In this document: positions 21,774 to 40,809 of the stretch, one piece after another | Layout: each line of letters starts with the position of its first letter | Position numbering within the stretch: position 1 is the first letter of the stretch | Source of the DNA: an uncultured Thermotogaceae bacterium | GTDB lineage: Bacteria; Thermotogota; Thermotogae; MWEM01 | Assembly (NCBI GenBank): GCA_964403295.1 | Contig: CAYOFT010000003.1 | Location: 1-63,145, forward strand | Reading direction: 5' to 3' | DNA: 63,145 bases | The notes under the pieces: model-generated | The model's input: the letters and a program-made list of their open reading frames with translations, nothing else | What the model was told of the DNA's origin: nothing | Databases searched by the model: none | Program-made: the position numbers and the translations under genes

Positions 21774-22595
21774 TTGAAATACAAAACAGTAGTCCTCGAC
21801 ATTGACGGAACGGTTTTGGATGACAAGCTGAGAATATCTGATAAAACCGTCAATCTTTTAAAAACAATCAGAAATAAGGGAATATCTGTTATTTTCTGTA
21901 CAGGTAGGATGTTGGGTTCAGCAAAACATATTCTTCTCAAATATTTTGGTAGTGACGAGTTCCCCATAGTGAGTTACAACGGCAGTTTAATTACACTGCC
22001 TAATCATGAAAAACCCATCTTTCATCATTTTATCGACAATAAATCTGCGCATGAAATCATCGAATATCTTCGAAGAAAAGATTGTCATCGTCAAGTTTAT
22101 GTTAATAATCAACTAATCGTAGAGGAAGATAATGATGCAATTAAAGACTATTCCATCCATGCTGGGATGGATTATCATGTGGTTGACAGTCTTACCGAAT
22201 TAATCCAAAAAGGTGAAAAGATTGACAAAATCCTTGCTATTGGTAGTCCTCAATTCCTTTCAGAAATTGAAGAAGAAAGTTTGACACTTTTTTCGGCAAA
22301 TACAAACATTTTTAAATCTTTTTCAATATACCTTGACTATATACCCAAAACCACCAATAAAGGCATTGCCGTTTTAGAATTGTTAAAATATCTCAATTTG
22401 GACCCCAAGCAGACTATTATGATAGGAGACGGTGATAATGATATTTTTGCATTTAACGTGGTCGGCTATTCCATCGCTATGGCTAATGCAACAGAAAAAC
22501 TCAAAAAAGCCGCTAGTCTTTGCCTTGACAAAACCAATAATGAGGAAGGTGTATATCACATTCTTAGTCACATTTTTTCTAATCTGCTCGATTAG
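21774..22595 (+). CDS. Cof-type HAD-IIB hydrolase
   Basis: LDIDGT, CTGR, NKG, GDGDND; TTG start after AGGAG. Confidence 0.92.
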   Translation: MKYKTVVLDIDGTVLDDKLRISDKTVNLLKTIRNKGISVIFCTGRMLGSAKHILLKYFGSDEFPIVSYNGSLITLPNHEKPIFHHFIDNKSAHEIIEYLRRKDCHRQVYVNNQLIVEEDNDAIKDYSIHAGMDYHVVDSLTELIQKGEKIDKILAIGSPQFLSEIEEESLTLFSANTNIFKSFSIYLDYIPKTTNKGIAVLELLKYLNLDPKQTIMIGDGDNDIFAFNVVGYSIAMANATEKLKKAASLCLDKTNNEEGVYHILSHIFSNLLD

Positions 22596-23409
22596 TTTCT
22601 CGGAACAAAATGTGATCACAGACAACGGATATACCATTTATTACCCGGATTTACCGTTTTATTTAGAGAATGTCTCTCCTTTTTCTTTAGGAAGTATAAC
22701 CAATCCGGAACTTTTATTTGACTTTGGTTTATTGTTAGCTCAAAAAGCCAAATTGGCTGATGCAAATGCCTGTGTTATTGGCTATGCTGAATTACTGCCT
22801 GAAGAAATCGAGTTCGTCAATGGACATTTTAATGAAGTCATTGCCCCTTTTTTTTCCGTAAATCCTTTTAAGGCATCACAAACTATCGAATGGATTGTTG
22901 ATGGTCTTACTGCTGGAGGCATTTTTCCGGTTTTAAGTGCTAAATATGGTTTAAATGATTCTCTTATTCAAAATTTAAAATATAGAATGATCTTTCCAGC
23001 AATCTTGCTTGAAACCTATGAAGGTGAAGTACAAACTTTTAAAGAAATGGCGTTAGCAGTAATAGAAGACTCAGGACAAGTCTCTCATTATCCAACCCTT
23101 TTGAAAAAACTTGATTGGATATGGCATCGCCAAATACTAGATGAAGAAATGTTGAGACAAGAATTATTAATAGCCTCAATTATTCAATTAAAAAAAAGAT
23201 TTCCTTTAAAGGATTTCCAAGTATTTCATACCCCGCTTACTTCATCAATAACTGACAAAGCTATCATTTTCATCAAAGATCCAAGAATTGTAAATTTGAA
23301 TAAGTTTTCCACCGGTTATCTAATTCATTCCAGTGAAGATTTTATGCTTGAAAGGATTCGCTTGATTTGTTCAGAAATTCATTACGCAAGAGGGAGTAAA
23401 ACTTGGTGA
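22540..23409 (+). CDS. Secreted hypothetical protein, possible degenerate GH3 N-terminal barrel
   Basis: Signal peptide MRKVYITFLVTFFLICSISFS; FSVNPFKASQTIEWIVDGLTAGGIFPVL resembles the GH3 'fs.dP..v......i.Gl...Gv' segment. Confidence 0.45.
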   Translation: MRKVYITFLVTFFLICSISFSEQNVITDNGYTIYYPDLPFYLENVSPFSLGSITNPELLFDFGLLLAQKAKLADANACVIGYAELLPEEIEFVNGHFNEVIAPFFSVNPFKASQTIEWIVDGLTAGGIFPVLSAKYGLNDSLIQNLKYRMIFPAILLETYEGEVQTFKEMALAVIEDSGQVSHYPTLLKKLDWIWHRQILDEEMLRQELLIASIIQLKKRFPLKDFQVFHTPLTSSITDKAIIFIKDPRIVNLNKFSTGYLIHSSEDFMLERIRLICSEIHYARGSKTW

Positions 23410-24113: not shown

Positions 24114-24183
24114 TAAACTAGCAGAAATCCATACGTATGTTAAAATAGTAAATGATAAAAGAATTCCTTCATCGGAGGTCAGT

Positions 24184-25272
24184 ATGGCTTACAAAGTTTT
24201 ACTTGATGATATAAAAAAAATTCACTTTGATTATATGAAATTAAGTATCCAACAAACCCCTTTTCTTTCCACGAGACTTAAAGCGAGAATAAAACTCCGC
24301 TTAAAAAATGATCTTAAAGACAAAATCAGCGATAAAAACAAACTTGAAAAGTTGATCCAAAAAAATATAAACACAACAAGACTTGTTTCTTGGTCAAGAA
24401 TCAATAGTTTAGCAAATGATACCGAAAATGAGCAAATGGACGGTTTTCGTTCATGGCTTTTCAGTATAAGTCTCGACATCCTTTTGTTAAAACTCGTTGC
24501 CTGGCATAAAGAATCTGGAATGAATGAACTGTTTAGAATGTATAATCTTCCCGTTAGATCATTTATCGCCAAAAATCTTTATGGGAAGAAGGGGACTGAA
24601 TACTTTAATATAAAATGTAATGATTTAACAATGGAAACCTTTCAAAGATTCCTGCGTTATAGCAACAATTTTTCTCCCTATAAGGGAACCATTTTCAGTT
24701 ATTTGATTTCAATTGCCGATCATTTAATCAAAGATGAAACAACCCAACCTGAAACATTAGTCTCCGATTTTAACGAGCAAGATGAAACCGAAACAGGTGG
24801 TGTCTTTTGGGCTGTTTCTCCTGATCCTTCTCCCGAACTAGTTCAGGAGAAAATAACCTTCGAAAAATTTATAATTGAACAAATTGTTCTCGAAGGGGGT
24901 TATCCCTGGCAAATTCTTGTGGTATTACTAACAAAAACCACAAATGACAGAACAGATATTACGCAATTGGGAGATTTTTCGATTGCAAAAATTTATCAAG
25001 AGATGAAAAACACTTTTACAAAAAGTTCCTTTCATGAAGAGCATGAATTAGATGAGTTGTTCCAACCTTTGGAAAAGCAATTGTCTTTGACTTTAAACCA
25101 AATCATACCAAGCAAAGATCACAGATCGAGAAGTCAGCTTGAAACCTGCTTGGACCAAAAGTTAGGACTAGTACCTTTAAAAACTTTTTTTGGAAAAGAC
25201 CCTTTAAAAAATATCCGCGATTGGAATCACAGGCTTTTTAAAAGGGTAAGAAAAAAGGTGATTGAAAGTTAA
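24184..25272 (+). CDS. Atypical ECF-like sigma-70 factor
   Basis: Region-2-like DILLLKLV...MNELFRMY...NDLTMETF...FSPYKGTIFSYLISIA..LIKD; SPE linker; C-terminal NIRDWNHRLFKRVRKK recognition-helix-like end. Confidence 0.7.
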   Translation: MAYKVLLDDIKKIHFDYMKLSIQQTPFLSTRLKARIKLRLKNDLKDKISDKNKLEKLIQKNINTTRLVSWSRINSLANDTENEQMDGFRSWLFSISLDILLLKLVAWHKESGMNELFRMYNLPVRSFIAKNLYGKKGTEYFNIKCNDLTMETFQRFLRYSNNFSPYKGTIFSYLISIADHLIKDETTQPETLVSDFNEQDETETGGVFWAVSPDPSPELVQEKITFEKFIIEQIVLEGGYPWQILVVLLTKTTNDRTDITQLGDFSIAKIYQEMKNTFTKSSFHEEHELDELFQPLEKQLSLTLNQIIPSKDHRSRSQLETCLDQKLGLVPLKTFFGKDPLKNIRDWNHRLFKRVRKKVIES

Positions 25273-25342
25273 ACATTCATGCGACAAGTTATGAATAAAT
25301 GAGTATTAACTATTGATTAGAGAATATTTGTGAGGTGTTAAA

Positions 25343-26119
25343 ATGAACAGACATTTGACCGATGAGGAAATCGAACAATATATTGATTCTGAATATCTCT
25401 CAACACAGAGTGGTCATGAAGCATCAGAAAAAACTGATATAACGGATTCACCAAAATTGAAAACAGAATTGATTTTAAAATTTGAAGAACACCTTATTAA
25501 TTGTGATGCCTGTCTTGAGAAAGTTACTAAGGCATTGGATTTTTCCATCTCTTTTCATCAATGGTTTGCAGAGAGCCCAACCGCTGAACAAAAGTTATTG
25601 CTGAAAATTTTGAAAGCAGCTCAAAAGGAAGAAAGTGATGTAAAAAAAAGGATCATGAAATGGATTAAAGATTGGCAAAGTTTTACAGACAATACAGTGG
25701 ATGTTTTATTAAATACTACATACAACGGTATATCTAACATCACAAAGTTCCTTTTTAAAAACACCAAAAACCGAAAAGCAAAATGGTCTTTCAACTACCC
25801 TGTGGAAAGCTTTGCTATGAGAGGAAATCCTGATATAAACTTTGAGAAAAGAATAGAAAATACACTTCATGGTCAGATTGGAGAAAAAGATATCTTAGAA
25901 ATAAAAGCTTTTTCAGAAGAAAAAAGCATAAAAATCAACTGTAAAAGTTTGGAAAACTATAATTCTTCTCCCATATTTTTACTTATACCACTTCATACGG
26001 GAGAACCAGTTATTCGATTATCTCGCAAAATCAAAGATACTGATGCCTATGAAATAATTTTAGATGGTTTAAATCCCGGCAAATATTTACTGGCTATAGA
26101 ACCAGATAATCAAGAATAA
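25343..26119 (+). CDS. Soluble ZAS/zf-HC2 anti-sigma-like protein
   Basis: H4...YID..L...FEEH50LINC54DAC57 (H...HxxxCxxC); no TM helix; beta-rich C-terminal domain; directly follows the sigma gene. Confidence 0.75.
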   Translation: MNRHLTDEEIEQYIDSEYLSTQSGHEASEKTDITDSPKLKTELILKFEEHLINCDACLEKVTKALDFSISFHQWFAESPTAEQKLLLKILKAAQKEESDVKKRIMKWIKDWQSFTDNTVDVLLNTTYNGISNITKFLFKNTKNRKAKWSFNYPVESFAMRGNPDINFEKRIENTLHGQIGEKDILEIKAFSEEKSIKINCKSLENYNSSPIFLLIPLHTGEPVIRLSRKIKDTDAYEIILDGLNPGKYLLAIEPDNQE

Positions 26120-26129
26120 AAGAGGTGTT

Positions 26130-29093
26130 ATGGAAAACTCTCAGATTAAAAGCATCACAAAAAAAATGGAAGAGTTCGCCAAACAAAAAAAAATAAACGA
26201 ATTTCAAGCCTTTACCGAACGATTGATTGATGAGATTTTGTTATCAGATTCTTATAACTACTCATCAAAAAGAGAGTTGCTTGCCTCAATTAACAACATC
26301 TATCTTTTTTTTGGGGATTATAAAAGTAATGAAAATATCTTAGAAAAATTATTGGAGCGGGAAAACGAAAAAAATATACCCAATCAAGATTATCTTGCTT
26401 TTATAATGAACCTTTTAGGAGAACTGCATTATTATGAAGGCAAGTTTAACTTGGCATTGTCAGAGTATCAAAAATCACTTAATATTCGGAATTCACTGTT
26501 TGGAGATTCACATCCGGATACTATAGAATCTTATACCAATTTGGCACTGTTATATACTGAAATTGCACGTTTTAAAGATGCGGAGAAAATTTTTTCAAGA
26601 GCATTGCAGATTTATGAGAGCAAAATAAGTGGACATATAGAAGGTTACATCATGACATTATGGAATACCGGACTTATGTATCAATATTGGGGTAAGTATT
26701 CTTTGGCAATGGAAAAGTATTTAACTGCATTAGAAATTTCTCAATTAAATATGACTCATGAATTAACAGATAATATCGAAAACAACCTTGGAGTGCTCTA
26801 TCTGGAAACAGGAAATTATGAAACAGCTGAAATATATCTTAAAAAATCATTTGAATACACTCAAAAACATTTTGGCATGAATCATCCGAAAACGATTACA
26901 ACTCTCAACAACCTTGTTTCCAGTCAAATGAATCTTAATAAATTCGAGTTGGCTGAAAACGGATTTTCTCATCTTCTAAAAGCTAATAAAACAATCATAC
27001 CTATTATCTCAATAAAGATAACTATTAATTATGCAGTTTTTTTAAGTAAAACAGGAAAAACACACAATGCATTGCAACTCCTTGAAGAATGTCTAGAAAG
27101 CCAAACAACTCCGGAAATTCAAATAAAAATTCTAGCAAATATCGCAAGAATCCAACTCATAAGAAATTCATTAAGTGAATCCCTGGAAACGGTAAGGAAG
27201 GCAATTTTAATTCAAAAAAAGACCATCGGAAAAAATCATATTCAATATACAAAACTTCTGGGATTGTTAGGGCAAGTTTTTGTTCGTTTAAATAAAAAAG
27301 AAGAAGCCTTTAAAACATTAAAGGAAGCTACGGAATTGCAAAATGAAATACTTCTTCAAGTATCGATATCCTTTTCAAAGGATTATGCTTGGAATTTCTA
27401 TCAAAAGTTAAGGCATGAACTGGATCAACTATTGAGTTTGTTTTCCCTGATGGTAAAGGAAAAATCAGAAGAAGATGTAATAATCATTGAATACATGCAA
27501 ATTATATTTGATTTATTACTCAGAAGAAAAGCTATTGTATTTGATGCCGGTATTGAAAGGTTAAATCATATTTTAAAAAAAGAAGACCCACATCTTTTAA
27601 CCCTTTTAGAATCTCTTATGAAAACAAAAGAAGAAATTGTGTTGAGAACGACAAAAGGTTACTTTTCTGAAAGCCCTGAAGAAAATCAAAAAAAAGTCAG
27701 GGAATTAAGTTCCAAGGCGGAAATACTTGAAAACAGATTATCCAGTCTTGTACCACTCTATTCATTAGAGTTAAAAGCAAAGCGTGCAACGCTGCAAATC
27801 TTGAAAGATAAAATACCTGAAAAAACATTGTTTGTAGACATCTTCAAGTTTCATTTCTTTGATTTTTTCATATCAGAGATAGAAAAACCTCATGAGAGTT
27901 ATCTTATATTTTATATCAGTAATAATAAAACAAGATTCTTAATTATAGAAGACGCTAAAGAAATTGAAGACCTAATAAAAAGAACCGATTCAAATAGGAA
28001 TAATTTGAATCGAGGTGAAATGAATCACTCTTTTAATGAAGACAAGGGACTAACACCCGAATCAGCTCTTAGAAGCATTTGGCAAGTCCTCTTCTCGGAT
28101 CAGATTCATTATGATAACTCAAAACTCAATACCCTCTGCATTTCTCCGGATGGGGAATTTTTCAACCTTCCATTTGAAACACTTATCTGTGAAAATGGAA
28201 ATTATTTGATAGAAAACTACCTTGTTCAATACGTTAATTCCGGAAGGCAAATTATTTATGACAAAAGCATGAAAATAAGTAATAATGATGGGATTGTCAT
28301 CTGTGCTGATCCTGATTTTGAAATAAAAAACAGAACCAAAACTTCAGATGATTCCAAACTAAAAAATAAGGTAAATACATTATTTAGAAATGAACTGAGC
28401 CAATTCACACAACTTCCAGGTACGGCTTTTGAAGCTAAAGAAATCCATAAAATGTTTGAAAACAACCAGATCAATTCAATAACATTGTTCAACCATGAAG
28501 CTGTAAATGACAGCGAACTTAAAAATTTAAATTCCCCCAAAATTTTACATTTTGCAACACATGGCTTTTATCTTGAAAACCGAATCGATATTCATCCTTT
28601 CTCCCGGTGTGGTATTGCTTTGAGCGGTATTAACAATATATTAAGAGGAGAATCTATACCCCCTTTATTTGAAGATGGTATGCTTACTGGGATGGATATT
28701 TTATCACTCAACCTTAATAACACCAATATTGTGGTACTTTCTGCCTGTAAAACGGGTAAAGGTCAGATTAACCCTGGCCAAGGCGTGATGGGATTGTGTT
28801 CTGCCTTATTTTCAGCCGGGGTATCATCAGTCTTGGTTAGTCTATGGAATGTACCAGATTCTTTTACTGTAAGTTTGATGTCAAAATTTTATGAAAAACT
28901 TCTACTGGGGATGAGGAAGTCAGAAGCTTTAAAACTTTCAAAAAAAACAATGATTAATACATTTAGAAAGCAGTGGGGTGAAGCACCTTCATGGATTTGG
29001 GGAGGTTTTATTCTCTATGGAGATGATTCTCCAATAATTAACTGTAGTTATAAAAAAAATGACAATACAATCATTAATGGTGAAAAAAATTGA
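26130..29093 (+). CDS. TPR-CHAT caspase-like cysteine protease
   Basis: Kinesin-light-chain-type TPRs (HPDTIESYTNLALLY, HPKTITTLNNL); CHAT motifs SPDGEFFNLPFETL, LPGT, LHFATH811G, VVLSAC873KTG, SLWNV, W.WGGFILYG; no signal peptide. Confidence 0.93.
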   Translation: MENSQIKSITKKMEEFAKQKKINEFQAFTERLIDEILLSDSYNYSSKRELLASINNIYLFFGDYKSNENILEKLLERENEKNIPNQDYLAFIMNLLGELHYYEGKFNLALSEYQKSLNIRNSLFGDSHPDTIESYTNLALLYTEIARFKDAEKIFSRALQIYESKISGHIEGYIMTLWNTGLMYQYWGKYSLAMEKYLTALEISQLNMTHELTDNIENNLGVLYLETGNYETAEIYLKKSFEYTQKHFGMNHPKTITTLNNLVSSQMNLNKFELAENGFSHLLKANKTIIPIISIKITINYAVFLSKTGKTHNALQLLEECLESQTTPEIQIKILANIARIQLIRNSLSESLETVRKAILIQKKTIGKNHIQYTKLLGLLGQVFVRLNKKEEAFKTLKEATELQNEILLQVSISFSKDYAWNFYQKLRHELDQLLSLFSLMVKEKSEEDVIIIEYMQIIFDLLLRRKAIVFDAGIERLNHILKKEDPHLLTLLESLMKTKEEIVLRTTKGYFSESPEENQKKVRELSSKAEILENRLSSLVPLYSLELKAKRATLQILKDKIPEKTLFVDIFKFHFFDFFISEIEKPHESYLIFYISNNKTRFLIIEDAKEIEDLIKRTDSNRNNLNRGEMNHSFNEDKGLTPESALRSIWQVLFSDQIHYDNSKLNTLCISPDGEFFNLPFETLICENGNYLIENYLVQYVNSGRQIIYDKSMKISNNDGIVICADPDFEIKNRTKTSDDSKLKNKVNTLFRNELSQFTQLPGTAFEAKEIHKMFENNQINSITLFNHEAVNDSELKNLNSPKILHFATHGFYLENRIDIHPFSRCGIALSGINNILRGESIPPLFEDGMLTGMDILSLNLNNTNIVVLSACKTGKGQINPGQGVMGLCSALFSAGVSSVLVSLWNVPDSFTVSLMSKFYEKLLLGMRKSEALKLSKKTMINTFRKQWGEAPSWIWGGFILYGDDSPIINCSYKKNDNTIINGEKN

Positions 29094-31444
29094 CAAAAGA
29101 GCACTCAATTTCTGTACGAGATGTCATCGGATTCCTTTATAGATCAGGCAATCTTGATAACAGATTCAACGCTCCGGATCTTTCAGAAAGGGGTAAACTT
29201 GGTGTAAAAGCTCATAAAAAAGTTCAAAAACAATACGAAGAAACCTTTCCGGGACAATTTGAAAGTGAAGTCTTTCTTAGTTGTTCTTTTAAAGAAAAAG
29301 ATTTGATGTTATCTCTTTTTGGGAGAGCTGACGCTATTCTTAAAAATAAAAAAGAAATCATCGTTGATGAAATCAAAACAACCCGAATTCCTTTAGAGGA
29401 TATTACAGATCTTTTGGATCAAAATCATCTCAGGCAATGCATGTGTTACGGCTATATGGTTCTATTAAAAGAAAAATTCGCAAAAATCGATTTGAGAATC
29501 ACATACTATAATATTGATGATGACGAAATGAAACATCTCTCTTTCACGTATTCAAAAGAATCCCTTACAGTATTTATCAATGAACTAATAACAGAATATA
29601 CCAAGTGGTTGTCAATAAAAGATGAATGGCTAAGCAAAAGAAATCAATCCATTAAGGGTCTTCACTTTCCATTTGAACGTTTTAGAGATGGGCAAAGAAA
29701 ACTTTCTGTAATGGTATACCATTCCATTAAAGATAAAAAAAAGCTTTTTGCTCAAGCACCAACAGGAACGGGCAAAACATTGGCAACTATTTTCCCTGCC
29801 CTAAAAGCAATGGGGAAAGGTCTTTCAGGTCCCCTTTTTTATTTTACTTCTAAAACTATCACTAGACAGGCGGTTGAAAATACCTTATCAATATTAAGAT
29901 CAAAAGGATTACAACTTAAATCAATTATAATCACAGCTAAAGAAAAAATGTGCATTAACAAAGAATATAAATGCAATCCTTATAATTGTCCTTTTGCAAA
30001 GGGGCATTTTGACAGAATTAATAAAGCACTCAAGGACATTGTATCTCGAAATGAACATTTTAGTACAAGCCTTATTCAAGAGCATGCCCAAGTACATCAA
30101 GTTTGTCCTTATGAATTGGCACTTGATCTGTCGGAATTTACAGATTGCGTCATCTGTGATTATAATTATTTATTTGATCCTCGAGCTTATTTGAGAAGGT
30201 ATTTTGAAGAAAAAGGGAATTATATTTTTCTTATAGACGAGGCTCATAATCTTCCGGACAGGGCCAGAGACATGTACTCTTCATCTCTATCATTAAAAAC
30301 GCTGAGAGAATTAATAGAAGCCATGAAAAACAGCAAATCAAAAATCGTAAAATACACAAAAAAGCTTGAAACAGAGGCTTCTTATTATTTTTTGAATGAA
30401 GGATCTGAACAAAAGTGGTCAACAAAAAAACCGCCTGAAGATCTTAAAATTCCACTTGAAGAAACATTAAGGGAAATTGCAGCATACCTTATGACTCCAG
30501 GCTATGATTCATTGAAGGAACAATTGACAGATTATTTTTTTGCGTTAAATACCTTCAACGATACCATGGAGAGATATACCGAACAATATATTTCTATCTA
30601 CGATTCGAAATACGAATCTGTTACTTTATATTGCGTTGATCCCTCCAATCATATTAGAGAAATGTTAGAAAAAGGCAACTCTTGTATCCTCTTTTCCGCA
30701 ACATTGTCTCCATTGGATTATTATAAGCAACTTTTCGGTGCGACAGAGGAAGATTATTCACTTATTTTAAAATCACCATTTAACCAACAAAGACTGTGTT
30801 TGCTTGTTAATTCAAAGATTTCAACCAAATACAATGCAAGACCATACTCTGCAGAATCAATTGTTGAAAATATCCATTTAATAACATCTCATAAAGGTAA
30901 TTACATGGTCTTTTTCCCTTCATATAAATATTTGGATATGATTTACGATGCTTTTAGTCAAAAATACCCACATATCCAAACCAGTAAGCAAACACCTTTT
31001 ATGAGTGAAAATGAACGAGAATCTTTTCTTGAATCTTTTAAACACTCCCCTAAAAAAACGCTTGTGGGATTTGTTCTGATGGGAGGAATTTTTGGAGAAG
31101 GAATCGATTTAATTGGAAGTAGATTAAGCGGTGCTGTCATCGTTGGAGTAGGATTACCTCAAATCGGTTTTGACAGAGATATTATCAAAAACTATTATCA
31201 GGAGAAATTAGGGAAGGGATGGGAGTTTGCCTATATAATTCCCGGTGCAAATAAAGTTATGCAGGCCGTGGGTCGAGTGATTCGTTCACATGAAGATAAA
31301 GGTGTTGTGATGCTTATCGATGAGCGATTCATTCATAACCCTTATCCTTCAATATTTCCAGCTGACTGGTCACATGCTGTCAGTATAAGAGACGAAAGGG
31401 AAATGAAAAAGATCTTAAAAGACTTTTGGAATAAAGACCACTAG
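29090..31444 (+). CDS. DinG/Rad3-family Fe-S helicase with N-terminal PD-(D/E)xK nuclease-like domain
   Basis: GRADAI...DEIKT; APTGTGKT; Cys cluster MCINKEYKC..NCPF...CPYE; DEAH; QAVGRVIR; TTGA overlap with the CHAT stop. Confidence 0.9.
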   Translation: MTKEHSISVRDVIGFLYRSGNLDNRFNAPDLSERGKLGVKAHKKVQKQYEETFPGQFESEVFLSCSFKEKDLMLSLFGRADAILKNKKEIIVDEIKTTRIPLEDITDLLDQNHLRQCMCYGYMVLLKEKFAKIDLRITYYNIDDDEMKHLSFTYSKESLTVFINELITEYTKWLSIKDEWLSKRNQSIKGLHFPFERFRDGQRKLSVMVYHSIKDKKKLFAQAPTGTGKTLATIFPALKAMGKGLSGPLFYFTSKTITRQAVENTLSILRSKGLQLKSIIITAKEKMCINKEYKCNPYNCPFAKGHFDRINKALKDIVSRNEHFSTSLIQEHAQVHQVCPYELALDLSEFTDCVICDYNYLFDPRAYLRRYFEEKGNYIFLIDEAHNLPDRARDMYSSSLSLKTLRELIEAMKNSKSKIVKYTKKLETEASYYFLNEGSEQKWSTKKPPEDLKIPLEETLREIAAYLMTPGYDSLKEQLTDYFFALNTFNDTMERYTEQYISIYDSKYESVTLYCVDPSNHIREMLEKGNSCILFSATLSPLDYYKQLFGATEEDYSLILKSPFNQQRLCLLVNSKISTKYNARPYSAESIVENIHLITSHKGNYMVFFPSYKYLDMIYDAFSQKYPHIQTSKQTPFMSENERESFLESFKHSPKKTLVGFVLMGGIFGEGIDLIGSRLSGAVIVGVGLPQIGFDRDIIKNYYQEKLGKGWEFAYIIPGANKVMQAVGRVIRSHEDKGVVMLIDERFIHNPYPSIFPADWSHAVSIRDEREMKKILKDFWNKDH

Positions 31445-33335: not shown

Positions 33336-34082
33336 TCAATCTTTTCTTAACTTATTCAAAGCCTCTTGCATACTTTGATGAATTGTGGATTCATACAGTT
33401 CATATGAATCATATGCATCGGGATGAACCGCTTTCAGGATAATCGCTTGAACATTGGCAGGTCGAACAATCCAACTTTTTTTTGGCATAGCATTACCTGT
33501 TCCATCCACAACCACCGGTAAAAGTGGTTTTTTACTTTTATAGGCTATTTTCAGACTTCCCGGAGCAAACGGAGCAATCAATCCGTCTTTTGTTCTAGTA
33601 CCCTCAGGAAAGATCCCTATACACTCTCCGGCTTTTAAAAATTCCAAGATCTTTCTTAATGCTTTCACGGCATTTTTCGGATCTTCACGGTCAATGGTAA
33701 TACAAAATAATTGCATTGCCTCTTTGAAAAAAGGAGCGTGATTTAGTTCTTCTTTTGCTAATAGAAATATATTTTCGGATATGTACCCCAAAACCAGCAT
33801 TGGATCAAGATAACTTTGATGATTCATACAGATAATGTAATTATCTTTATCAGGAAGATTCTCAATATCTTGAATTTTCGGATGAATACCACACCAAGTA
33901 AATAATTTCCTGGAAAAAGCTGGGGATCTCTTTCTTATGTAGCTTTGGGCGGCTTCTTTCCCTTTATTTTTTTCTATTTTCAGTGCTTTTTTCAATTGGA
34001 CATAACCATACAAGAGAAGGATTATTGCTGCAAAAAAATAATAGATCTTGTAGAAAAAAAAGGCAATTTTATTCATTTTCAA
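33336..34082 (-). CDS. plsC: 1-acyl-sn-glycerol-3-phosphate acyltransferase
   Basis: NHQSYLD, FPEGTR; start TTG 34082 or ATG 34076 after AGGAG. Confidence 0.9.
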   Translation of the reverse strand: MKMNKIAFFFYKIYYFFAAIILLLYGYVQLKKALKIEKNKGKEAAQSYIRKRSPAFSRKLFTWCGIHPKIQDIENLPDKDNYIICMNHQSYLDPMLVLGYISENIFLLAKEELNHAPFFKEAMQLFCITIDREDPKNAVKALRKILEFLKAGECIGIFPEGTRTKDGLIAPFAPGSLKIAYKSKKPLLPVVVDGTGNAMPKKSWIVRPANVQAIILKAVHPDAYDSYELYESTIHQSMQEALNKLRKD

Positions 34083-34120
34083 TATTGCTCTCCTTTGATT
34101 AGATGAAAAACATTCAAAAT

Positions 34121-34153
34121 AAAAAGGGGGCAATATATTGCATTGCCCCTCTT
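34121..34153 (-). terminator. Intrinsic terminator after argF
   Basis: GGGGCAAT / ATTGCCCC stem, followed on the minus strand by a T run. Confidence 0.75.
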
Positions 34154-34168
34154 ATTACACACAGTATT

Positions 34169-35110
34169 TTATGGTGTTACTAATGCCAAAATGGCTTTGA
34201 TCGAATGCATCCTGTTTGCAGCCTCGTCAAAAATTACACTTCTGGGGTTATGGGCAACTTCATGTGTACATTCTTCTCCATAATGAGCAGGCAGGCAGTG
34301 CATAAAAATGGCTGTTGGCTTTGCCTTGTTGAATTTCTCCATATCTACCTGATAGGCCAGGAATTTCTTCTTCTTTTCTTCAGCTTCCGCTTCCTGCCCC
34401 ATACTTGCCCATACATCTGTATAGACAATATCCGCATCAACGATTCCTTCATTAACATCATTAGTGACATTTATCTTTGATCCGGTATTGTATTGTTTGA
34501 CAATTGCGTTTGCATCGTTGATGACATCATCAGTTGGCTCGAACCCTGGTGCAGTAATGGCTGTTATGTGAGTTCCCATAAGCGCTGCGGAGAAAATTGT
34601 AGAATTACATACATTATTTCCATCACCAATATAAGCTATTTTTAACCCCTCAAAACGTCTGAATTTTTCATAAATGGTTAAAAAGTCTCCCAAAGCCTGT
34701 GTAGGATGTTCATAATCACACAGTCCGTTAATAACAGGAACACTAGCATATTCAGCAAGCTCTTTGATCGTTTTGTTTTCAAACACACGTGCCATAATCA
34801 CATCAACCATTCCTGAAAGCACTTTTGCGATATCTTCAGTCGTTTCTCTTTGTCCCAGTTTGATATCATCAGGACCAAGGTAAATCCCATGTCCACCCAA
34901 ATGTGTCATTGAAGATTCAAAAGAAACCCTTGTCCTGAGTGAAGGTTTCTGAAAAATCTCAGCAAGTGTTTTGTTTTTTAAAATTTCTGGTCTTTGGCCA
35001 ATATTCAAGCCGGTTTTCAATGAAATTGCCGTTTCAATAAACTGGAAAAATTCCTCCGGTGTTAAATCTTTAATGCTAATCAGGTCTCTTCCCTTAAGGT
35101 TTACTGACAT
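34169..35110 (-). CDS. argF: Ornithine carbamoyltransferase
   Basis: KPSLRTR, HPTQ, GDGNN, DVWASMG, HCLP. Confidence 0.92.
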   Translation of the reverse strand: MSVNLKGRDLISIKDLTPEEFFQFIETAISLKTGLNIGQRPEILKNKTLAEIFQKPSLRTRVSFESSMTHLGGHGIYLGPDDIKLGQRETTEDIAKVLSGMVDVIMARVFENKTIKELAEYASVPVINGLCDYEHPTQALGDFLTIYEKFRRFEGLKIAYIGDGNNVCNSTIFSAALMGTHITAITAPGFEPTDDVINDANAIVKQYNTGSKINVTNDVNEGIVDADIVYTDVWASMGQEAEAEEKKKKFLAYQVDMEKFNKAKPTAIFMHCLPAHYGEECTHEVAHNPRSVIFDEAANRMHSIKAILALVTP

Positions 35111-35135
35111 ACCACACCTCCGTAGTAAAATAAAA

Positions 35136-36071
35136 TTATTTGGTTCTCTCTAAGGCAACTGAGGCAGCTCCGAGAATTGCCCCCTTTTCCTTTAATTCGC
35201 TGATAATTATATCATAAGAATGAGATAAAGATGGATAGGTATGTTCATGAGCAACTTGCCTAACTTCTTTAAGGAAAATATCACTGGCTCTTGAAATACC
35301 TCCTGAGAGGATAATCAAATCAGGATTAAATATATTGACCATAGAACCAATACCGATCCCAAGTCCCCAGTTAAATTTTCTAACCACAAGCGTTGCTAAC
35401 CGATCTCCCTCTTTAAAAGCATCAAAAATGGCCTTTGCATCAACCGGTCCATTACCCGAATATTTGAAAACAAGCGAATCAGGATAACGTTCTTGAAAGA
35501 TTTTTACCCACTCACGCATTCCCGTGACAGACGAAAAAGTTTCGAGACATCCTTTGCTGCCACAACTGCATACAGGGCCGCTGGGATCAACAATCATATG
35601 GCCGATTTCTCCGCCATATCCATGTCCTCCCACAATGAGATGTCCCTCTGTATACGCTCCGCCTCCCACACCTGTACCTAATGTAACGACGATAAAGTTA
35701 TCGATGTTTCTTGCGGAACCGAACCATCTTTCACCCAAAGCAGCTGCCTTAGCATCGTTTTCGAGATAGGCATCATAACCCGTACTCTCTTTTATCATCC
35801 TCACCAGTTCTACACCATTTAAAGCTGTAATATTGTTTGCGTATGTTATCACACCATTTTCTCTGTCAATTGAACCTGGGGACCCTATTCCAACCTTTAC
35901 AAGTTCTCCTTGAGCAATTTCTCTTATTAAACCGATAATTCTATTACAAATCATTTTTGTGCCTTCATTCACAAGTGTTTTAGTTGTTTTTTGTCTGGTT
36001 ATTTCACCACTTTCATCAACAAGCGCGGCTTTAATATTTGTTCCTCCCAGATCAACTCCCACAATTTTCAT
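35136..36071 (-). CDS. ROK family sugar kinase (glucokinase-like)
   Basis: DLGGT, ENDA, GTGVGGG, GEIGH, CSCGSKGCLE. Confidence 0.93.
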   Translation of the reverse strand: MKIVGVDLGGTNIKAALVDESGEITRQKTTKTLVNEGTKMICNRIIGLIREIAQGELVKVGIGSPGSIDRENGVITYANNITALNGVELVRMIKESTGYDAYLENDAKAAALGERWFGSARNIDNFIVVTLGTGVGGGAYTEGHLIVGGHGYGGEIGHMIVDPSGPVCSCGSKGCLETFSSVTGMREWVKIFQERYPDSLVFKYSGNGPVDAKAIFDAFKEGDRLATLVVRKFNWGLGIGIGSMVNIFNPDLIILSGGISRASDIFLKEVRQVAHEHTYPSLSHSYDIIISELKEKGAILGAASVALERTK

Positions 36072-36075
36072 AGAC

Positions 36076-36648
36076 TTACCCCTTTCTTTTCAAAATCTCT
36101 ATCTTAACCGTTGAATATAAATGTTTATCTTCAACAGTATAATACTCGTTGTTGTCAAAATTAAATTCTTTATAAGATTCAACAATGATTCTTCCACCGG
36201 GTTTGAGTATTTTTTGTGTGTTGAGAAAAATTTTCATAATACGAAAATAATGTTTTTCATTAAAAGGCGGATCAATAAAAATGATATCGTACATTTCAGG
36301 GGGATTCATTAAGAATCTTATCACATCTTTTTTTATTATTCTAACATTATCGGTAACCTGTAACTTCTGTACATTGTTTTTCAATGCTTTAATGGCTTTG
36401 TCAGATATATCAACAAAGGTTGAAAAAGTAGCTCCTCGACTTAATGCTTCGAATCCCATTTGACCACTGCCGGCACACAAATCTAAAAAATGAGCATCTA
36501 ATACCGATCGTTTTGACTCAAGAATCGAAAATATAGCATTTTTGACCTTTGAAGGTGTGTATTTTGTCCGATTATCTTCAACCTGTTGTATCTTTTGATT
36601 TTTATATTTTCCGGAAACGATTGTTAAAGTATTCATTTTCTTATTCAC
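36076..36648 (-). CDS. rsmD: 16S rRNA m2G966 methyltransferase
   Basis: LDLCAGSGQMGFEALSRGA, DPPF. Confidence 0.9.
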   Translation of the reverse strand: MNKKMNTLTIVSGKYKNQKIQQVEDNRTKYTPSKVKNAIFSILESKRSVLDAHFLDLCAGSGQMGFEALSRGATFSTFVDISDKAIKALKNNVQKLQVTDNVRIIKKDVIRFLMNPPEMYDIIFIDPPFNEKHYFRIMKIFLNTQKILKPGGRIIVESYKEFNFDNNEYYTVEDKHLYSTVKIEILKRKG

Positions 36649-36664
36649 CTGAAATTTTATGCAG

Positions 36665-37525
36665 TTACTTTAAAAAATTCATCTTTGGAACTAATATCTC
36701 TTCCAAAATATCATCTATCTCTTTACGTGATTTATTAAATCTGGAAATGAACGGTTTTAAATTCGACAGGAATTTGGTCAATCGTTCAAATTTTATATAG
36801 AAGGTCGTCAAAACATTTGGTACACCGTTTAACATTTCACCCTCCGAAGGCAAGAAAATGTTAGGATAGGTTTTAGCAATAATGTGATTAATCATAGCGG
36901 CAATCGCTCTGTCTTCATTTTCTGTGTTTTGTGAGCTTTTTGGCATCCTCAATGAAAACAGTGCTTTTTCATCGCTAAAATCAAAGCGATATCCTTCTTC
37001 TGTCCACATTTCATATGCGGTCAGAATTTTGATGAATTTTTCCTCCGAAAACAAACCGGCTGCTGAAAGTAAATTCTTGCCATAGACACCCTCACGATTT
37101 AACAATTCTATTGTTTCTTTCTTTTTACCAACTATTGAAAATGAGGGCACCGGAACAGGTTCAGAGAACAAGCCTAAAAACATTTTCAAACTGGATTCAT
37201 TTGGTTGTGGGATGTGCAATCTTCTAAATAATTCTCTATATTCTTCAACAAATTCTTGAGGGATCGAAATCTTTTTATTTGCTAATGCCTTTCTTGACGC
37301 ATCTTTTGTGGTAGAAAGGCCAATGATAAAAGGGCCGTTTTTGGAAACATAGATAAACAACGAAGGAAATCCCTTTGTACAAAGAAACAATCCTAGAAAT
37401 CTTTTTCCTTTTGTTTCTGAAGAAAAAAAACTCTTGAATGAATATTCATTAATGGTGTTAATAAAAATTCTTTGCAAGTCTTCTGTCACTGTTTTTGGTC
37501 CCAGTTTAATGAATTCATCGCTCAT
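36665..37525 (-). CDS. Hypothetical protein (possibly a Thermotogota-specific DUF)
   Basis: 286-aa ORF in a minus-strand operon between recQ and rsmD; no confident motif. Confidence 0.6.
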   Translation of the reverse strand: MSDEFIKLGPKTVTEDLQRIFINTINEYSFKSFFSSETKGKRFLGLFLCTKGFPSLFIYVSKNGPFIIGLSTTKDASRKALANKKISIPQEFVEEYRELFRRLHIPQPNESSLKMFLGLFSEPVPVPSFSIVGKKKETIELLNREGVYGKNLLSAAGLFSEEKFIKILTAYEMWTEEGYRFDFSDEKALFSLRMPKSSQNTENEDRAIAAMINHIIAKTYPNIFLPSEGEMLNGVPNVLTTFYIKFERLTKFLSNLKPFISRFNKSRKEIDDILEEILVPKMNFLK

Positions 37526-37533
37526 TGTTTTAA

Positions 37534-39315
37534 CTATCCTTTATGTGATTTAATCAATTGAAGAAACCTTTCCCCATATTTTATTAACTTCTTCTCTCCT
37601 ACTCCTTTTATCTTTAGAAAAGCTTCAAAAGTATTTGGCTTCATTAAGCTCATTTCATTCAAAGAATAATCGTGAAATACTACGTATGGAGGAACGTTTT
37701 CTTCGATTGAAATAGTTTTTCTCAACTTCTTCAATTCATCGTATAACTGAGTATTTTGTTTTCTTTCCTCTTTTATCAAAGAGGTTTTTTTTACTATTCT
37801 TTTTTTCCCTTTTAATACTTCCCAGGAATTTTTGTTCAATTTCAGAATTGGATATAACCCAATGCTTACTTCCAAATAGCCTTCTGCAGATAAAAAATTG
37901 ATCAATTCTCTAATATCCACTTCTTTAAATTCTTGCAAGATAGCGTAAGTTGATAAACTTTCAAATCCCTTGAGCTTTATTTTTGAGCTTTTGGAACCTT
38001 TTAAAACTTTGGCAACTGTGGAGGCCCCATAGGATTGATTCATCCTGTAAACACATGACAAAATCTTTTGTGCTTCAATGGTTATATCCATTTCAATGAG
38101 ATTCTCATCCAGACAGTTTAGGCAATTCTGACAATCACTTTCACTTGTCTCACCAAAATACAGCGCCATTGATTGCCATAAACACTCATGGGTATGACAA
38201 AAATTAATCATATCCTGTAATTTAGATGTTGCAATTATTTGCCTTTCCTCAGTTAAATCGGATTTCTCGATTAAAAACCTTTGGATTCTTTTATCCACTT
38301 CACTGTACAATAAATAGGCCTGTGAAGGTTCTCCATCACGTCCAGCTCTTCCAATTTCCTGATAATACGATTCAATCGTTTTAGGCATATTGTAATGAAC
38401 GATATAACGTATGTTAGGTTTATCAATACCCATACCAAATGCGTTTGTCGCAACCATTAAATCAATATCTTCAAGAATAAATGAGTCCTGCATTTCTTTT
38501 CTTTGCTCAGGATTCATACCAGCATGATATTTACCAATTCTTATGTTTCTCTTTTTTAGGTAGTTGTATAATTCGTCAACTGTTTTTCTTGTTGCACAAT
38601 ACACAATCCCCGTTTCCCCTTGCTTTTTATTAATTAAATCGTCTAGAAATTGTCGTTTGTTTTTTCCTTTAACAACCTCAATATAAATGTTTGATCGTTT
38701 CAAGCCCAAATTGAAAATCTCTGGAAGATTCAATCCTAACAAATGCCTAATATCTTTTCTAACTGCTTTAGTTGCAGTAGCAGTAAAAGCACTTAAAACA
38801 GGCTGTCCAGATAAATTACCGACGAAATCTTTAATCAATTTATAGCTTGGACGAAAATCATGACCCCATTGGGAAACACAGTGGGCTTCATCAACTGCTA
38901 CCTGTTCAATTTCAACAGATGAAACTCCCTTAAGAAATATTTCTGTGTTCAATCTTTCTGGAGCAATATACAATATTTTACAAGTTCCGTCTATAAAATC
39001 TTTTGTTCTTTCACGAATTTCCTCAGCTGACAAACTACTGTTAATATATGTTGCATGAATATCCATTGATTTCAAGGTATCAACTTGATCCTTCATTAAA
39101 GAAATGAGTGGTGATATCACAATACTTTTTCCCTCGAAAATCAAAGCGGGTATTTGAAAGCATAATGATTTTCCTGCACCAGTTGGCATGATGGCGATTG
39201 TATCCTTTTTCATCAAAAGAGATTCTATGATTTCTCTTTGACCTTTTCTAAAATAATCGTATCCGTAGTATTTTTTTAATATCTGTTCAGGGTTCAAGTT
39301 TTTCAGATTTATCAA
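37534..39315 (-). CDS. recQ: ATP-dependent DNA helicase RecQ
   Basis: MPTGAGKS, DEAHCVSQWGHDFRPSY, QEIGRAGRDG, Zn-binding Cys, RQC and HRDC (PPYVVFHD) domains. Confidence 0.96.
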   Translation of the reverse strand: MINLKNLNPEQILKKYYGYDYFRKGQREIIESLLMKKDTIAIMPTGAGKSLCFQIPALIFEGKSIVISPLISLMKDQVDTLKSMDIHATYINSSLSAEEIRERTKDFIDGTCKILYIAPERLNTEIFLKGVSSVEIEQVAVDEAHCVSQWGHDFRPSYKLIKDFVGNLSGQPVLSAFTATATKAVRKDIRHLLGLNLPEIFNLGLKRSNIYIEVVKGKNKRQFLDDLINKKQGETGIVYCATRKTVDELYNYLKKRNIRIGKYHAGMNPEQRKEMQDSFILEDIDLMVATNAFGMGIDKPNIRYIVHYNMPKTIESYYQEIGRAGRDGEPSQAYLLYSEVDKRIQRFLIEKSDLTEERQIIATSKLQDMINFCHTHECLWQSMALYFGETSESDCQNCLNCLDENLIEMDITIEAQKILSCVYRMNQSYGASTVAKVLKGSKSSKIKLKGFESLSTYAILQEFKEVDIRELINFLSAEGYLEVSIGLYPILKLNKNSWEVLKGKKRIVKKTSLIKEERKQNTQLYDELKKLRKTISIEENVPPYVVFHDYSLNEMSLMKPNTFEAFLKIKGVGEKKLIKYGERFLQLIKSHKG

Positions 39316-39373
39316 CGAAGAGCAGAACTCCTTGATTTAGAATAATGGTTGGTTTTTATCATGCTAAAAATAA

Positions 39374-40660
39374 TCATTTACAAACCATAATATTTAATAT
39401 GTATTCATCGGTGATTTTCATTGCCTTTGAACCGATGTTTGCTAGATTTCTAATGCTATTTTCAATATCATTTTCAATAATACCATCATTTTCATTGGCG
39501 CCATTTCCCTCAATAGCTACTTTTGCAGCAAGATATGCGGCATTTACACCAGATGCTACTTTCAAAGCACAGCCTGGCTTAGCACCATCGCATATCATGC
39601 CTGTCAGATTAGCTATTAAATTTTTCATTGATAAAATTATTTTTTCCTTATCTCCGCCCATTAAATATGTCAACCCCGCTGCTACACCAGTTGACGCGGC
39701 AACAATGCCACAAAGAGCAGAAAGTCTTCCAAGATAGGATTTTATATGTATCGTCAATAAATGGCTCAAGGCGAGAGCTCTGAGTTTTTTTTCTTCACTT
39801 ACGTTCATTTTTTCAGCATACGCGCAGATCGGTATCGTTGCATTAATTCCCTGATTTCCACTCCCGCTGTTACTCATAGCCGGGAGAACACAACCCGCCA
39901 TTCTTGCATCAGCGGCCGCTGCTGTCATAGCAACAACAAAGGATGACAAACAATCACCATAATCATTGATATTTGTTTTTAACATCATTGTTTTCCCGAT
40001 TTGAATCCCATATTCACCTTCCAAACCCTCTTTCGCTATTGCCATATTCAATAGTTCAGCTTTTTTTAAAAATGACAGTTTTTGGATTGGAACTTTTTTT
40101 GAAAAATCAATAATGTTATCAACACTAATTTCAGAATCTATTTTTTCATTACCATTTTTGAGATCACCAAGTTCTTTTTTAAACAGAATCTTGTTATCAC
40201 GTTCAATAAGTGAAATATTTGAATGTTCTTCTTGGATAACAACTTTTGTTTCATGAGTCATTTCTTTGTTATAACAAATACATTCCACAAATAAAGGATT
40301 TGAATGTTTTTTTATTTCAATTTCTATTTCATCTTTTTCAAGTTTTTCTTTTGCCCGTCTAATATGGGCTTCGGTCACATATTTTAAAACTTCCAATCCA
40401 TACTTTGAATCTCCTCCACATGTACCCAATGCAGCTGCAATATGTAAACCAACCATACCAGTACCCGGAATTCCAACTCCCATACCATTTTTAAAAAGAT
40501 TGGGACTTACAAATACATGTACTTTGCCTGCCTCTTCCCCAAGAGTTTCTTTTGCCTTTGCCGCTGCAAGTGCTACAGCTATTGGCTCAGTACATCCCAG
40601 GGCAGGAACTACTTCTTTTACTAAAATATTTAACAAGTCTTCCATGGATGGCTTTTTCAT
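39374..40660 (-). CDS. L-cysteine desulfidase / serine dehydratase alpha-like (YhaM/CyuA family)
   Basis: VVPALGCTEPIA, MSNSGSGNQG, LSALCG, GMICDGAKPGCALK. Confidence 0.9.
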   Translation of the reverse strand: MKKPSMEDLLNILVKEVVPALGCTEPIAVALAAAKAKETLGEEAGKVHVFVSPNLFKNGMGVGIPGTGMVGLHIAAALGTCGGDSKYGLEVLKYVTEAHIRRAKEKLEKDEIEIEIKKHSNPLFVECICYNKEMTHETKVVIQEEHSNISLIERDNKILFKKELGDLKNGNEKIDSEISVDNIIDFSKKVPIQKLSFLKKAELLNMAIAKEGLEGEYGIQIGKTMMLKTNINDYGDCLSSFVVAMTAAAADARMAGCVLPAMSNSGSGNQGINATIPICAYAEKMNVSEEKKLRALALSHLLTIHIKSYLGRLSALCGIVAASTGVAAGLTYLMGGDKEKIILSMKNLIANLTGMICDGAKPGCALKVASGVNAAYLAAKVAIEGNGANENDGIIENDIENSIRNLANIGSKAMKITDEYILNIMVCK

Positions 40661-40809
40661 TTTTTACTTCCTTTCGGTTTAAACATAGTAAAAAGATATT
40701 ACATCAAATAAAAACTACATAAACTTCAGTTCTTTCGTTTTTTTAATTCAAATCTATAAGTTGACTACCTTCCAAGGAATTATTTTGTATGATTTCTTAT
40801 ACCTATTAC

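Follow-up and report, generated by a model that had tools for sequence, protein, structure and literature searches.

A CRISPR-less, cytoplasmic sigma/anti-sigma/TPR-CHAT locus in uncultured Thermotogota: a candidate protease-gated transcription switch

Protease-gated release of a sigma factor by CHAT or Lon enzymes is documented only inside type III CRISPR systems, or has been proposed for the membrane-spanning protein DdvA. In the type III-E Craspase module (Csx29-Csx30-Csx31-CASP-sigma), the TPR-CHAT protease Csx29 cuts the inhibitor in a flexible loop of its C-terminal domain, without strict sequence requirements, and inhibition of the sigma factor is relieved (PMC10028731). DdvA, which acts with the sigma factor DdvS, is a single transmembrane (TM) polypeptide whose periplasmic TPR-CHAT part lacks three active-site helices; release needs RseP, and the trigger is proposed to be cleavage of the anti-sigma by the CHAT part (PMC11506125). 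Type III-B systems hold CalpL-CalpT-CalpS, a SAVED-Lon protease with an anti-sigma and an extracytoplasmic function (ECF)-like sigma factor (10.1101/2023.06.23.546230, 10.1101/2024.05.08.593097), and SAVED-CHAT/PCaspase with PCc-sigma is a further precedent for protease/sigma logic (10.1101/2023.06.23.546230). In the actinobacterial ECF54 group, which comprises canonical ECF sigmas and is described without an anti-sigma, proteins with CHAT, subtilase and carboxypeptidase domains lie in the conserved neighbourhood, and proteolysis has been proposed as a means of control (PMC8999054). Here we describe three adjacent genes from an uncultured Thermotogaceae bacterium (contig CAYOFT010000003.1, positions 1 to 63,145; this whole stretch is referred to as the window) that encode a sigma-like protein, a soluble zinc anti-sigma (ZAS)-like protein and a TPR-CHAT protease. 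With a probability of about 0.45, we read this locus as a CRISPR-independent transcription switch in which a protease would gate a sigma/anti-sigma pair.

The three co-oriented open reading frames (ORFs) lie on the + strand at 24184-25272 (362 aa, sigma-like), 25343-26119 (258 aa, ZAS-like) and 26130-29093 (987 aa, TPR-CHAT), with a gap of 70 nt between the first two and of 10 nt between the second and third. Homologues of all three proteins, at 38-83% identity, occur in collinear loci, so these are real genes rather than chance ORFs. Kyte-Doolittle 19-residue hydropathy, combined with N-terminal hydrophobicity, revealed no TM helix or signal peptide in the three proteins or their orthologues: the N-termini are non-hydrophobic, and the maximum hydropathy of the ZAS-like proteins is 0.57-1.41. 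The whole set is thus predicted to be cytoplasmic.

The locus shares with the Craspase module a cytoplasmic TPR-CHAT protein beside an ECF-like sigma factor and a sigma inhibitor. It differs in that none of the components that define a type III-E Craspase (Cas7-11/gRAMP, array, Csx30, Csx31) was found, nor a CRISPR RNA array or cas gene of any other kind, and in that its inhibitor is ZAS-type and unrelated to Csx30; the activating input here cannot be target RNA, and the locus belongs to the vertically inherited core genome. A tandem-repeat and CRISPR search of the 63 kb returned no array, the triad had no match to Cas genes in PADLOC or NCBIfam, and none turned up in the immediate neighbours that were scanned, which bears out an earlier remark that Cas7-11 and an array are absent. 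In PDB sequence searches with the family profiles, no chain of Csx29, Csx30, separase or another CHAT protein rose above thresholds, and the CHAT protein has no specific sequence similarity to the Csx29 chains in the PDB. A specific relationship with Csx29 or Csx30 is thus not supported. As in DdvA/DdvS, a ZAS-type domain, a TPR-CHAT part and an ECF-type sigma occur together. Whereas a DdvA-type protein is a single chain that has a TM helix and places TPR-CHAT in the periplasm, ZAS and TPR-CHAT are here separate, in two genes with a 10-nt gap, both cytoplasmic and without a TM helix, and no CBASS or CRISPR regulon lies nearby; DdvA itself appeared in the PDB search through its ZAS domain alone, at a non-significant E=0.16.

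In Rhodobacter sphaeroides ChrR/SigE and Streptomyces RsrA/SigR, too, the anti-sigma is soluble, cytoplasmic and equipped with a zinc site of the form H/C...HxxxCxxC, and ChrR, like the ZAS-like protein, joins an N-terminal anti-sigma domain (ASD) to a C-terminal beta-rich domain, which is the sensor in ChrR. That domain is a cupin in ChrR and apparently an Ig/FN3-like sandwich here, as judged by weak Foldseek matches. Unlike in these systems, the sigma-like protein of the window is roughly double the size of an ECF sigma and has extra domains, and a CHAT protease is encoded downstream. CalpL-CalpT-CalpS is also tripartite and cytoplasmic, and cleavage of its anti-sigma is thought to free the sigma, but the protease is Lon and not CHAT, its input is a SAVED-sensed cyclic oligoadenylate, and it is CRISPR-associated; none of these features occurs here. 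ECF54 resembles the locus in having, in silico, ECF sigma genes conserved beside CHAT-domain proteins; its description sets it apart from the window sigma, which belongs to a divergent family with a cognate ZAS partner.

By its profile and fold matches, the first gene encodes a divergent, enlarged ECF-related sigma factor with a statistically supported region 2. The window protein alone matches Pfam Sigma70_r2 weakly (E=0.018), 15 of 16 homologues match it (best 6.1e-5), and the homologues at two loci outside the clade score above its cut-off (L101, 39.7 bits; L102, 28.4 bits). When the extended family profile (A5) was compared with the PDB, only ECF sigma factors were retrieved, all of them over region 2: R. 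sphaeroides SigE at 6.6e-7, BldN at 1e-5, E. coli SigE at 1e-3 and SigK at 1.3e-3. Foldseek with the AlphaFold2 (AF2) model gave sigma factors, mostly ECF, as approximately the first 40 PDB matches, and the sigma-2 part superposes on region 2 of SigC and SigE with a TM-score of 0.74-0.81 and a root-mean-square deviation of 2.0-2.6 A. This region spans aa ~111-190 (24514-24753) and is followed by an acidic linker. It is preceded by an N-terminal extension (aa 1-110, 24184-24513) that is conserved throughout the clade and in one locus beyond it (L104), and a family-specific 'GGYPWQ' middle domain of ~80 aa (aa ~217-297, 24832-25074) stands between it and the C-terminus. Because of the 110-aa extension and the ~80-aa domain, the 362-aa protein falls outside the canonical two-domain ECF definition (~170-220 aa, no region 1.1 or 3). 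The last 65 residues (aa ~298-362, 25075-25269) may form a sigma-4 or helix-turn-helix region: they contain 'IIPSKDHRSR', which resembles the 'LP...R' pattern of region 4.1, 'LKNIRDWNHRLFKRVRKKV', and an invariant basic helix, IRDWNHRxFKRVRK. AF2 places helices at 315-323, 333-336 and 340-361, with a predicted local distance difference test (pLDDT) score of 38-62.

The second gene belongs to a family without previous annotation. A profile of 11 close homologues, among which HxxxCxxC is invariant, was searched against 1.84 billion representative proteins (E<=1e-3) and retrieved 79 relatives (representative clusters), nearly all of 230-270 aa and matched over their full length; those looked up are unnamed or 'hypothetical'. 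In a 75-member alignment of the family, the putative zinc ligands H4 (25352-25354) and H50xxxC54xxC57 ('HLINCDAC', 25490-25513, checked in the translation) are conserved in 85% and in 99% each, respectively, and no member has a convincing TM helix. The spacer between the first His and HxxxCxxC measures 20-45 residues and is longer than canonical in the window protein. Its AF2 model has a helical N-terminal domain (aa 1-~115; helices 7-24, 41-53, 55-72 and 81-93), in which H50 ends the helix 41-53 and C54 and C57 start the helix 55-72, an arrangement known from class I anti-sigma domains. A C-terminal beta-sandwich follows (aa ~174-254, ending in 'PGKYLLAIEP'; strands within 174-252). Between the two domains lies a segment with pLDDT <50 (aa 151-172), and this predicted loop holds most of the F150-x-Y...R160-G161 motif (RG at 25820-25825), with R160 conserved in 95% and G161 in 83% of the family.

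The assignment of this N-terminus as a ZAS-type domain is supported by profile comparison, since the corresponding part of the family hidden Markov model (HMM) matches TM HxxxCxxC anti-sigmas that adjoin canonical ECF sigmas (4.5e-7, 5e-5 and 1e-4), and five of 12 sub-threshold PDB matches of the family profile are ZAS anti-sigmas (RslA, DdvA, RsrA, RsiW and ChrR). The shallow clade alignments had left such profile and PDB searches nearly empty, and they became informative after family extension. At another locus (L042:2942-4285), a 447-aa protein begins with a tandem pair of ZAS-like domains (family HMM E=8e-19), and the gene for an exported TPR-CHAT protein of 1426 aa lies just downstream.

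The third gene encodes the TPR-CHAT protein, which Pfam identifies as a caspase-like protease. A TPR_12/TPR_10 array of the kinesin light chain type occupies aa ~50-410 (26277-27359; TPR_12 E=9.5e-41), with sequence similarity in the PDB to kinesin light chain only, and is followed by a helical middle region. The CHAT domain (Pfam PF12770, clan CD; E=3.2e-58) covers aa 646-965 (28065-29024) and contains the predicted catalytic residues His811 (ILHFATH811G, 28560-28562) and Cys873 (VVLSAC873KTG, 28746-28748), both of which are invariant in an alignment of 16 sequences with relatives down to 25% identity. Identity of the CHAT protein falls sharply to ~30% outside the clade, and most of its relatives, unlike the window protein, have a signal peptide. 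Its nearest non-clade relatives (~28% identity; L016:3501-8397 and L017:2142-8775) are preceded by TIR_2-DUF4384 and RyR-domain (AAA) proteins, a recurrent three-gene arrangement that resembles a conflict system and is unrelated to sigma factors.

The first-pass annotation, made from the sequence alone, had read these ORFs as a sigma-70 region-2/4-like protein, an HxxxCxxC zinc anti-sigma-like protein and a TPR-CHAT protein with an intact dyad (FATH811G, LSAC873), none of them with a signal peptide or TM helix. Coordinates, strand and lengths, the hydropathy scan, the zinc motif with its link to TM ZAS anti-sigmas, and the dyad all agree with that description, as does sigma region 2; region 4 lacks a profile match. 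Of the Foldseek comparisons it had suggested, that of the first protein returned sigma factors, while that of the second returned weak generic beta-sandwich matches and no anti-sigma.

Evidence that the first two genes belong together comes from outside the clade. Genomic context was obtained for five further ZAS-like family members, on contigs whose GC content ranges from 31 to 56%, and in all five, as in the whole clade, a gene of the same sigma-like family lies directly upstream in the same order. These sigma-like genes were matched by the A1 HMM at 8e-125 (L104), 2e-48 (L100; hhalign probability 99.9%), 7e-22 (L101; hhalign probability 98.3%) and 2e-9 (L103), and by the extended HMM at 2e-14 (L102). 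Because the arrangement recurs in each of these contexts, the sigma-like/ZAS-like pair is, on gene order and homology, a genuine two-gene module, co-conserved far beyond the clade.

A third partner is more variable. In three of the five contexts (L100, L104 and L102), and in the whole Thermotogota clade, it is a TPR(-CHAT) protein without a signal peptide, and in L102 two full TPR-CHAT genes (CHAT 2e-61 and 1e-64) cluster with two sigma/ZAS pairs. This locus (L102:626-13014, GC 31.5%, also with a SASP protein and spore-former-like) holds two tandem cytoplasmic TPR-CHAT genes, an unassigned 293-aa gene, a ZAS-like gene, a TPR/MORN gene and then a second sigma-like/ZAS-like pair, and has the appearance of the module after duplication and expansion. 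The remaining two contexts have a Clp_N-domain protein (L101:4227-6086 and L103:8786-11212; Pfam Clp_N 5e-8 and 2.7e-13). These two proteins share 34% identity (E=2e-86), with an additional FHA domain in that of L103. Clp_N, too, is a module linked to proteolysis, and the protein may take the place of the TPR-CHAT as third component. CHAT is thus a frequent and not an obligatory partner, and the triad co-conservation that had been expected holds for the pair in every outgroup context and for a TPR(-CHAT) third gene in three of five.

Within the clade, co-conservation of the triad carries little weight, because all neighbouring genes are syntenic too. The genes dxs, a HAD phosphatase and an rsuA-like gene lie upstream, prephenate dehydrogenase (pdh) and gpsA downstream, and the order of sigma-like, ZAS-like, TPR-CHAT and helicase genes is the same in every clade relative compared. 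In one clade lineage the identities are 70% for dxs, 75% for pdh, 70% for the helicase, 58% for the sigma, 49% for the ZAS and 54% for the CHAT protein; in the most distant lineage they are 61% (helicase), 70% (pdh), 49% (sigma), 38% (ZAS) and 40% (CHAT). The most divergent lineage has another upstream context (topA and a DsrE-like gene), and the four genes are still together. Synteny extends over the entire neighbourhood in all relatives, and protein identity falls in step with genome divergence. As far as comparative sequence can tell, the locus is therefore an old chromosomal operon that a small Thermotogota clade has inherited vertically at one fixed place in its core genome, and within this syntenic region the triad evolves faster than its neighbours. 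On these grounds we rejected a recent insertion or a mobile island: the first-pass annotation was right about the housekeeping neighbours, but the triad was not inserted among them. The sigma-like family was detected in only 8 species genomes in GTDB, all of them metagenome-assembled genomes of uncultured Thermotogota/Thermotogaceae and one of them a closed chromosome of 3.98 Mb. DNA of the locus is found in metagenomic runs from marine sediment and sludge only, and no public RNA-seq run contains it. For one related contig (L013, 272,598 bp; P0013/P0027) the database labels conflict ('Bacteroidales bacterium' versus 'Thermotogota bacterium'), probably through a mislabel in one database.

Alignment of the regions upstream of the clade loci revealed an extended -10 element, TGTTAAAAT (TGnTAAAAT, 24138-24146, + strand), 38-46 nt upstream of the sigma-like ATG, with a GGAGG ribosome-binding site between the two (24174-24178). 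TGnTA(A/G)AAT occurs at the same distance in 10/10 clade loci compared, including the most divergent ones with their other upstream gene. We infer that this element is an extended -10 for the housekeeping sigma factor (sigmaA-type). A generic promoter and terminator scan gave counts at chance level and was uninformative.

A different kind of support for a link between anti-sigma and protease is found in TPR-CHAT loci elsewhere. In L018 (3755-7917), a distant relative of the window's CHAT protein carries a signal peptide and follows a canonical ECF sigma of 184 aa and a single-pass membrane protein of 234 aa with C...HxxxCxxC; by its domain content this triad is the truly 'split DdvA-like' arrangement. 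Split DdvA-like triads with a canonical ECF sigma, a TM anti-sigma and an exported TPR-CHAT thus exist at other loci. The L018 sigma factor was considered as a specific relative of the window sigma and rejected, as the two are not specifically related. Among 80 further metagenomic TPR-CHAT loci, an iteratively built ECF HMM found a sigma factor in the flanks of 10. Four have a sigma, then a TM protein, then a TPR-CHAT with a hydrophobic N-terminus (L053, L064, L066 and L074), and convergent sigma/anti-sigma pairs lie near TPR-CHAT in L071, L086 and L097. Going by predicted topology, the C-terminal part of the anti-sigma and the CHAT protein change compartment together, being extracytoplasmic in the canonical-ECF triads and cytoplasmic here, as is expected if the protease must meet the C-terminal part of the anti-sigma. 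The extracytoplasmic domains of the anti-sigmas in L018, L053, L064, L066 and L074 all start with x-R-[GS] (FPMRGG, TPQLRG, APQMRG and the like). The likeness of this start to the RG motif of the window protein is anecdotal, because hhalign aligns the ZAS-like C-terminal domain with these periplasmic domains at a probability of 22-42% and the 75-member HMM has no match to them.

Taken as a switch, the locus would work as follows. The operon would be transcribed constitutively from its sigmaA-type extended -10 promoter, so that all components are pre-made, and the helical zinc domain at the N-terminus of the anti-sigma would hold the sigma in check. On sensing an intracellular signal through the TPR array, the CHAT protease would become active and cut the anti-sigma in the exposed inter-domain loop, the best candidate site being after the conserved Arg160 (FAMR160|G161NP). 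The anti-sigma remnant would be degraded and the freed sigma would steer RNA polymerase to its regulon. Separase prefers Arg at P1, and a basic P1 at R160 would by analogy fit separase- and metacaspase-type enzymes of clan CD. For metacaspases, a preference for Arg at P1 is cited in 10.1101/2023.06.23.546230. Such a switch would more probably serve a stress or damage response specific to the lineage than act as a mobile anti-phage system.

Several observations weigh against this switch. Binding, cleavage, cleavage site, signal and regulon are all deduced rather than observed. Both AF2 monomer models are of low quality (mean pLDDT 55.5 for the sigma-like and 63.1 for the ZAS-like protein). Sigma70_r4 or r4_2 was matched by 0/16 family members at E<=10, and no region 4 appeared in the PDB profile search. 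The native ZAS-like protein has no match to Pfam zf-HC2 (PF13490), which one of 11 homologues reaches at E=0.16; hand deletion of the 20-residue insert (aa 22-41) brings the window protein to E=0.0047 and 17.4 bits, where the cut-off is 22.2. An ECF-type promoter for autoregulation was not recognised, the sole conserved upstream element being sigmaA-like. The outgroup sample comprises only five contexts, two of which lack an adjacent CHAT gene, and on two of the other three (L100 and L104) the protein directly after the pair is TPR_12-rich and without a signal peptide, but the contigs end before the CHAT region. The RG motif is equally conserved in ZAS-like members with a Clp_N neighbour (P0153 and P0160), so it need not be a CHAT site. 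Finally, genes adjoining sigma/anti-sigma pairs are often their targets and not their regulators (PMC7826278).

This last ambiguity also feeds a possible though rather unlikely alternative, a redox- or thiol-sensing pair of the RsrA or ChrR kind. The zinc-thiolate site of the ZAS protein would sense oxidants or electrophiles and free the sigma, and the CHAT protein, perhaps with the helicase-nuclease, would be an output or a co-transcribed neighbour. A soluble cytoplasmic anti-sigma with a near-invariant H/HxxxCxxC site, the ChrR-like layout of ASD and C-terminal beta domain, the best PDB match of the sigma profile to the ChrR partner SigE of R. sphaeroides, and the pairs that do without an adjacent CHAT gene (L101 and L103) all fit such a pair. 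On the other hand, the sigmaA-type promoter and the lack of a recognisable sigma-dependent promoter in the 10-nt gap before CHAT mean that CHAT is not obviously an induced output, anti-sigma and CHAT switch compartments together (TM/exported versus cytoplasmic), and the alternative third partner, Clp_N, is again proteolysis-related. The organisms moreover come from anoxic sediments and sludge, though thiol stress would still be possible there. An anti-phage or abortive-infection module, in which TPR-CHAT would degrade host or phage proteins while the pair tunes a defence regulon, as a CRISPR-less cousin of Craspase, is improbable. CHAT proteases do act in type III-E and III-B CRISPR defence (PMC10028731; 10.1101/2023.06.23.546230), DdvA/DdvS control a CBASS-CRISPR island (PMC11506125), and TIR_2-DUF4384 and RyR/AAA genes precede the nearest non-clade TPR-CHAT relatives (L016 and L017). 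However, PADLOC-DB v2 gave nothing for the sigma-like or ZAS-like proteins and a weak generic TPR match (8e-4) for the CHAT protein; no array lies in the 63 kb and no cas gene in the operon or the immediate neighbours scanned; there is no sequence relationship to the Csx29 and Csx30 chains in the PDB. A defence role, which the first-pass annotation had offered beside a stress role, is not supported either by the vertical inheritance, across 48-83% protein identity, at a fixed, syntenic core position among housekeeping genes, outside any defence island and unlike the patchy occurrence typical of such islands.

Two further explanations are less probable still. If the TPR-CHAT gene were merely the next in a co-directional string, and the sigma-like protein maybe a degenerate, non-transcribing sigma mimic, the run of 24 same-strand ORFs around the triad, the syntenic neighbourhood and the sigma-4 region that profiles do not detect would need no other account. 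This is quite improbable, as adjacency of TPR(-CHAT) to both families recurs in unrelated backgrounds (GC 31-46%) and all three proteins are under strong purifying selection, which extends to the catalytic dyad and the basic helix at the C-terminus of the sigma. Slightly more doubtful again is processing of a pro-sigma, with CHAT acting on the sigma-like protein, for instance by removing its 110-aa N-terminal extension, and the ZAS protein as a separate brake. SpoIIGA processes pro-sigmaE in Bacillus, and the extension, which is conserved across the clade and also at L104, is missing from canonical ECF sigmas. Yet the L102 sigma (353 aa) starts at sigma-2 despite two nearby TPR-CHAT genes, the L103 sigma has a long N-terminus but a Clp_N partner, and the sigma has no conserved loop motif comparable to RG. 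Returning to the protease-gated switch, a bolder form of it would make the locus a free-standing surveillance device: the TPRs would directly recognise a foreign or damaged protein, CHAT would cut the Arg-Gly loop, and the expanded ECF-related sigma would start a dedicated response. The same chassis would accept TPR-CHAT or Clp_N/FHA triggers, and such modular, widespread units could be a source of the CRISPR-associated protease/sigma modules. In this full form the proposal is speculative and unlikely, somewhat less so than the defence module considered above.

The gene that follows the triad encodes a 784-aa PD-(D/E)XK (Cas4-like) nuclease fused to a DinG/Rad3-type helicase (29090-31444, + strand; Pfam Helicase_C_2 2e-38, DEAD_2 1.8e-15, PDDEXK_1 1.9e-4). 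It begins with TTG, with a 4-nt overlap at the CHAT stop codon, and the two genes are probably co-transcribed. It matches the generic PADLOC 'type IV DinG' model at 2.6e-126, and every match to the NCBIfam models rad3, YoaA and DinG stays below the equivalog cut-off. The gene was considered as a fourth component and rejected: it is collinear in all clade loci at 61-88% identity, which is the housekeeping rate, and is absent beside the sigma/ZAS pair in L101, L102 and L103. It is thus probably a housekeeping neighbour and not part of the module. This co-operonic helicase-nuclease, the synteny with vertical inheritance and the sigmaA-type promoter are points that the first-pass annotation did not contain.

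Farther upstream, a 325-aa ORF (22432-23409, + strand) has no Pfam match and is 56-83% conserved in the clade. As listed, the ORF shares 164 nt with the HAD phosphatase gene before it; its inner hydrophobic segment, MRKVYITFLVTFFLICSISFS, may mark a true signal-peptide start. The run of 24 same-strand ORFs (>=200 aa, that is, at least 200 aa each) in which the triad lies has short or overlapping junctions, and an Rfam scan of the whole 63-kb window found no RNA family. Cumulative GC skew in the window peaks at ~33 kb (~33300) and has its minimum at ~49 kb (~49500). These turning points match the switches of the coding strand, with + genes at 7000-33305, - genes at 33336-49227 and + genes again thereafter.

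The logic of protease, anti-sigma and sigma is known already; what would be new is a stand-alone, cytoplasmic, CRISPR-less version of it, whose sigma and anti-sigma come from two families without earlier annotation. The literature that could be searched describes neither a CRISPR-less, all-cytoplasmic sigma/ZAS/TPR-CHAT module nor either of these families, which is not proof of absence. Should the link to CHAT not be real, what remains is a new family of sigma/anti-sigma pairs from a phylum that has been little studied. The locus also defines the two families: a sigma factor with extra domains, and a soluble ZAS anti-sigma with 79 representative clusters. Arg160-Gly161 is a concrete, testable hypothesis for the cleavage site, and the three small-to-medium soluble proteins are expected to be easy to reconstitute in E. 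coli. Such a system could answer what activates TPR-CHAT proteases outside CRISPR and what determines their specificity. If the switch is true, the locus and its relatives would represent the same logic as the CRISPR-associated modules, run as a stand-alone and fully cytoplasmic chromosomal module without a nucleic-acid sensor.

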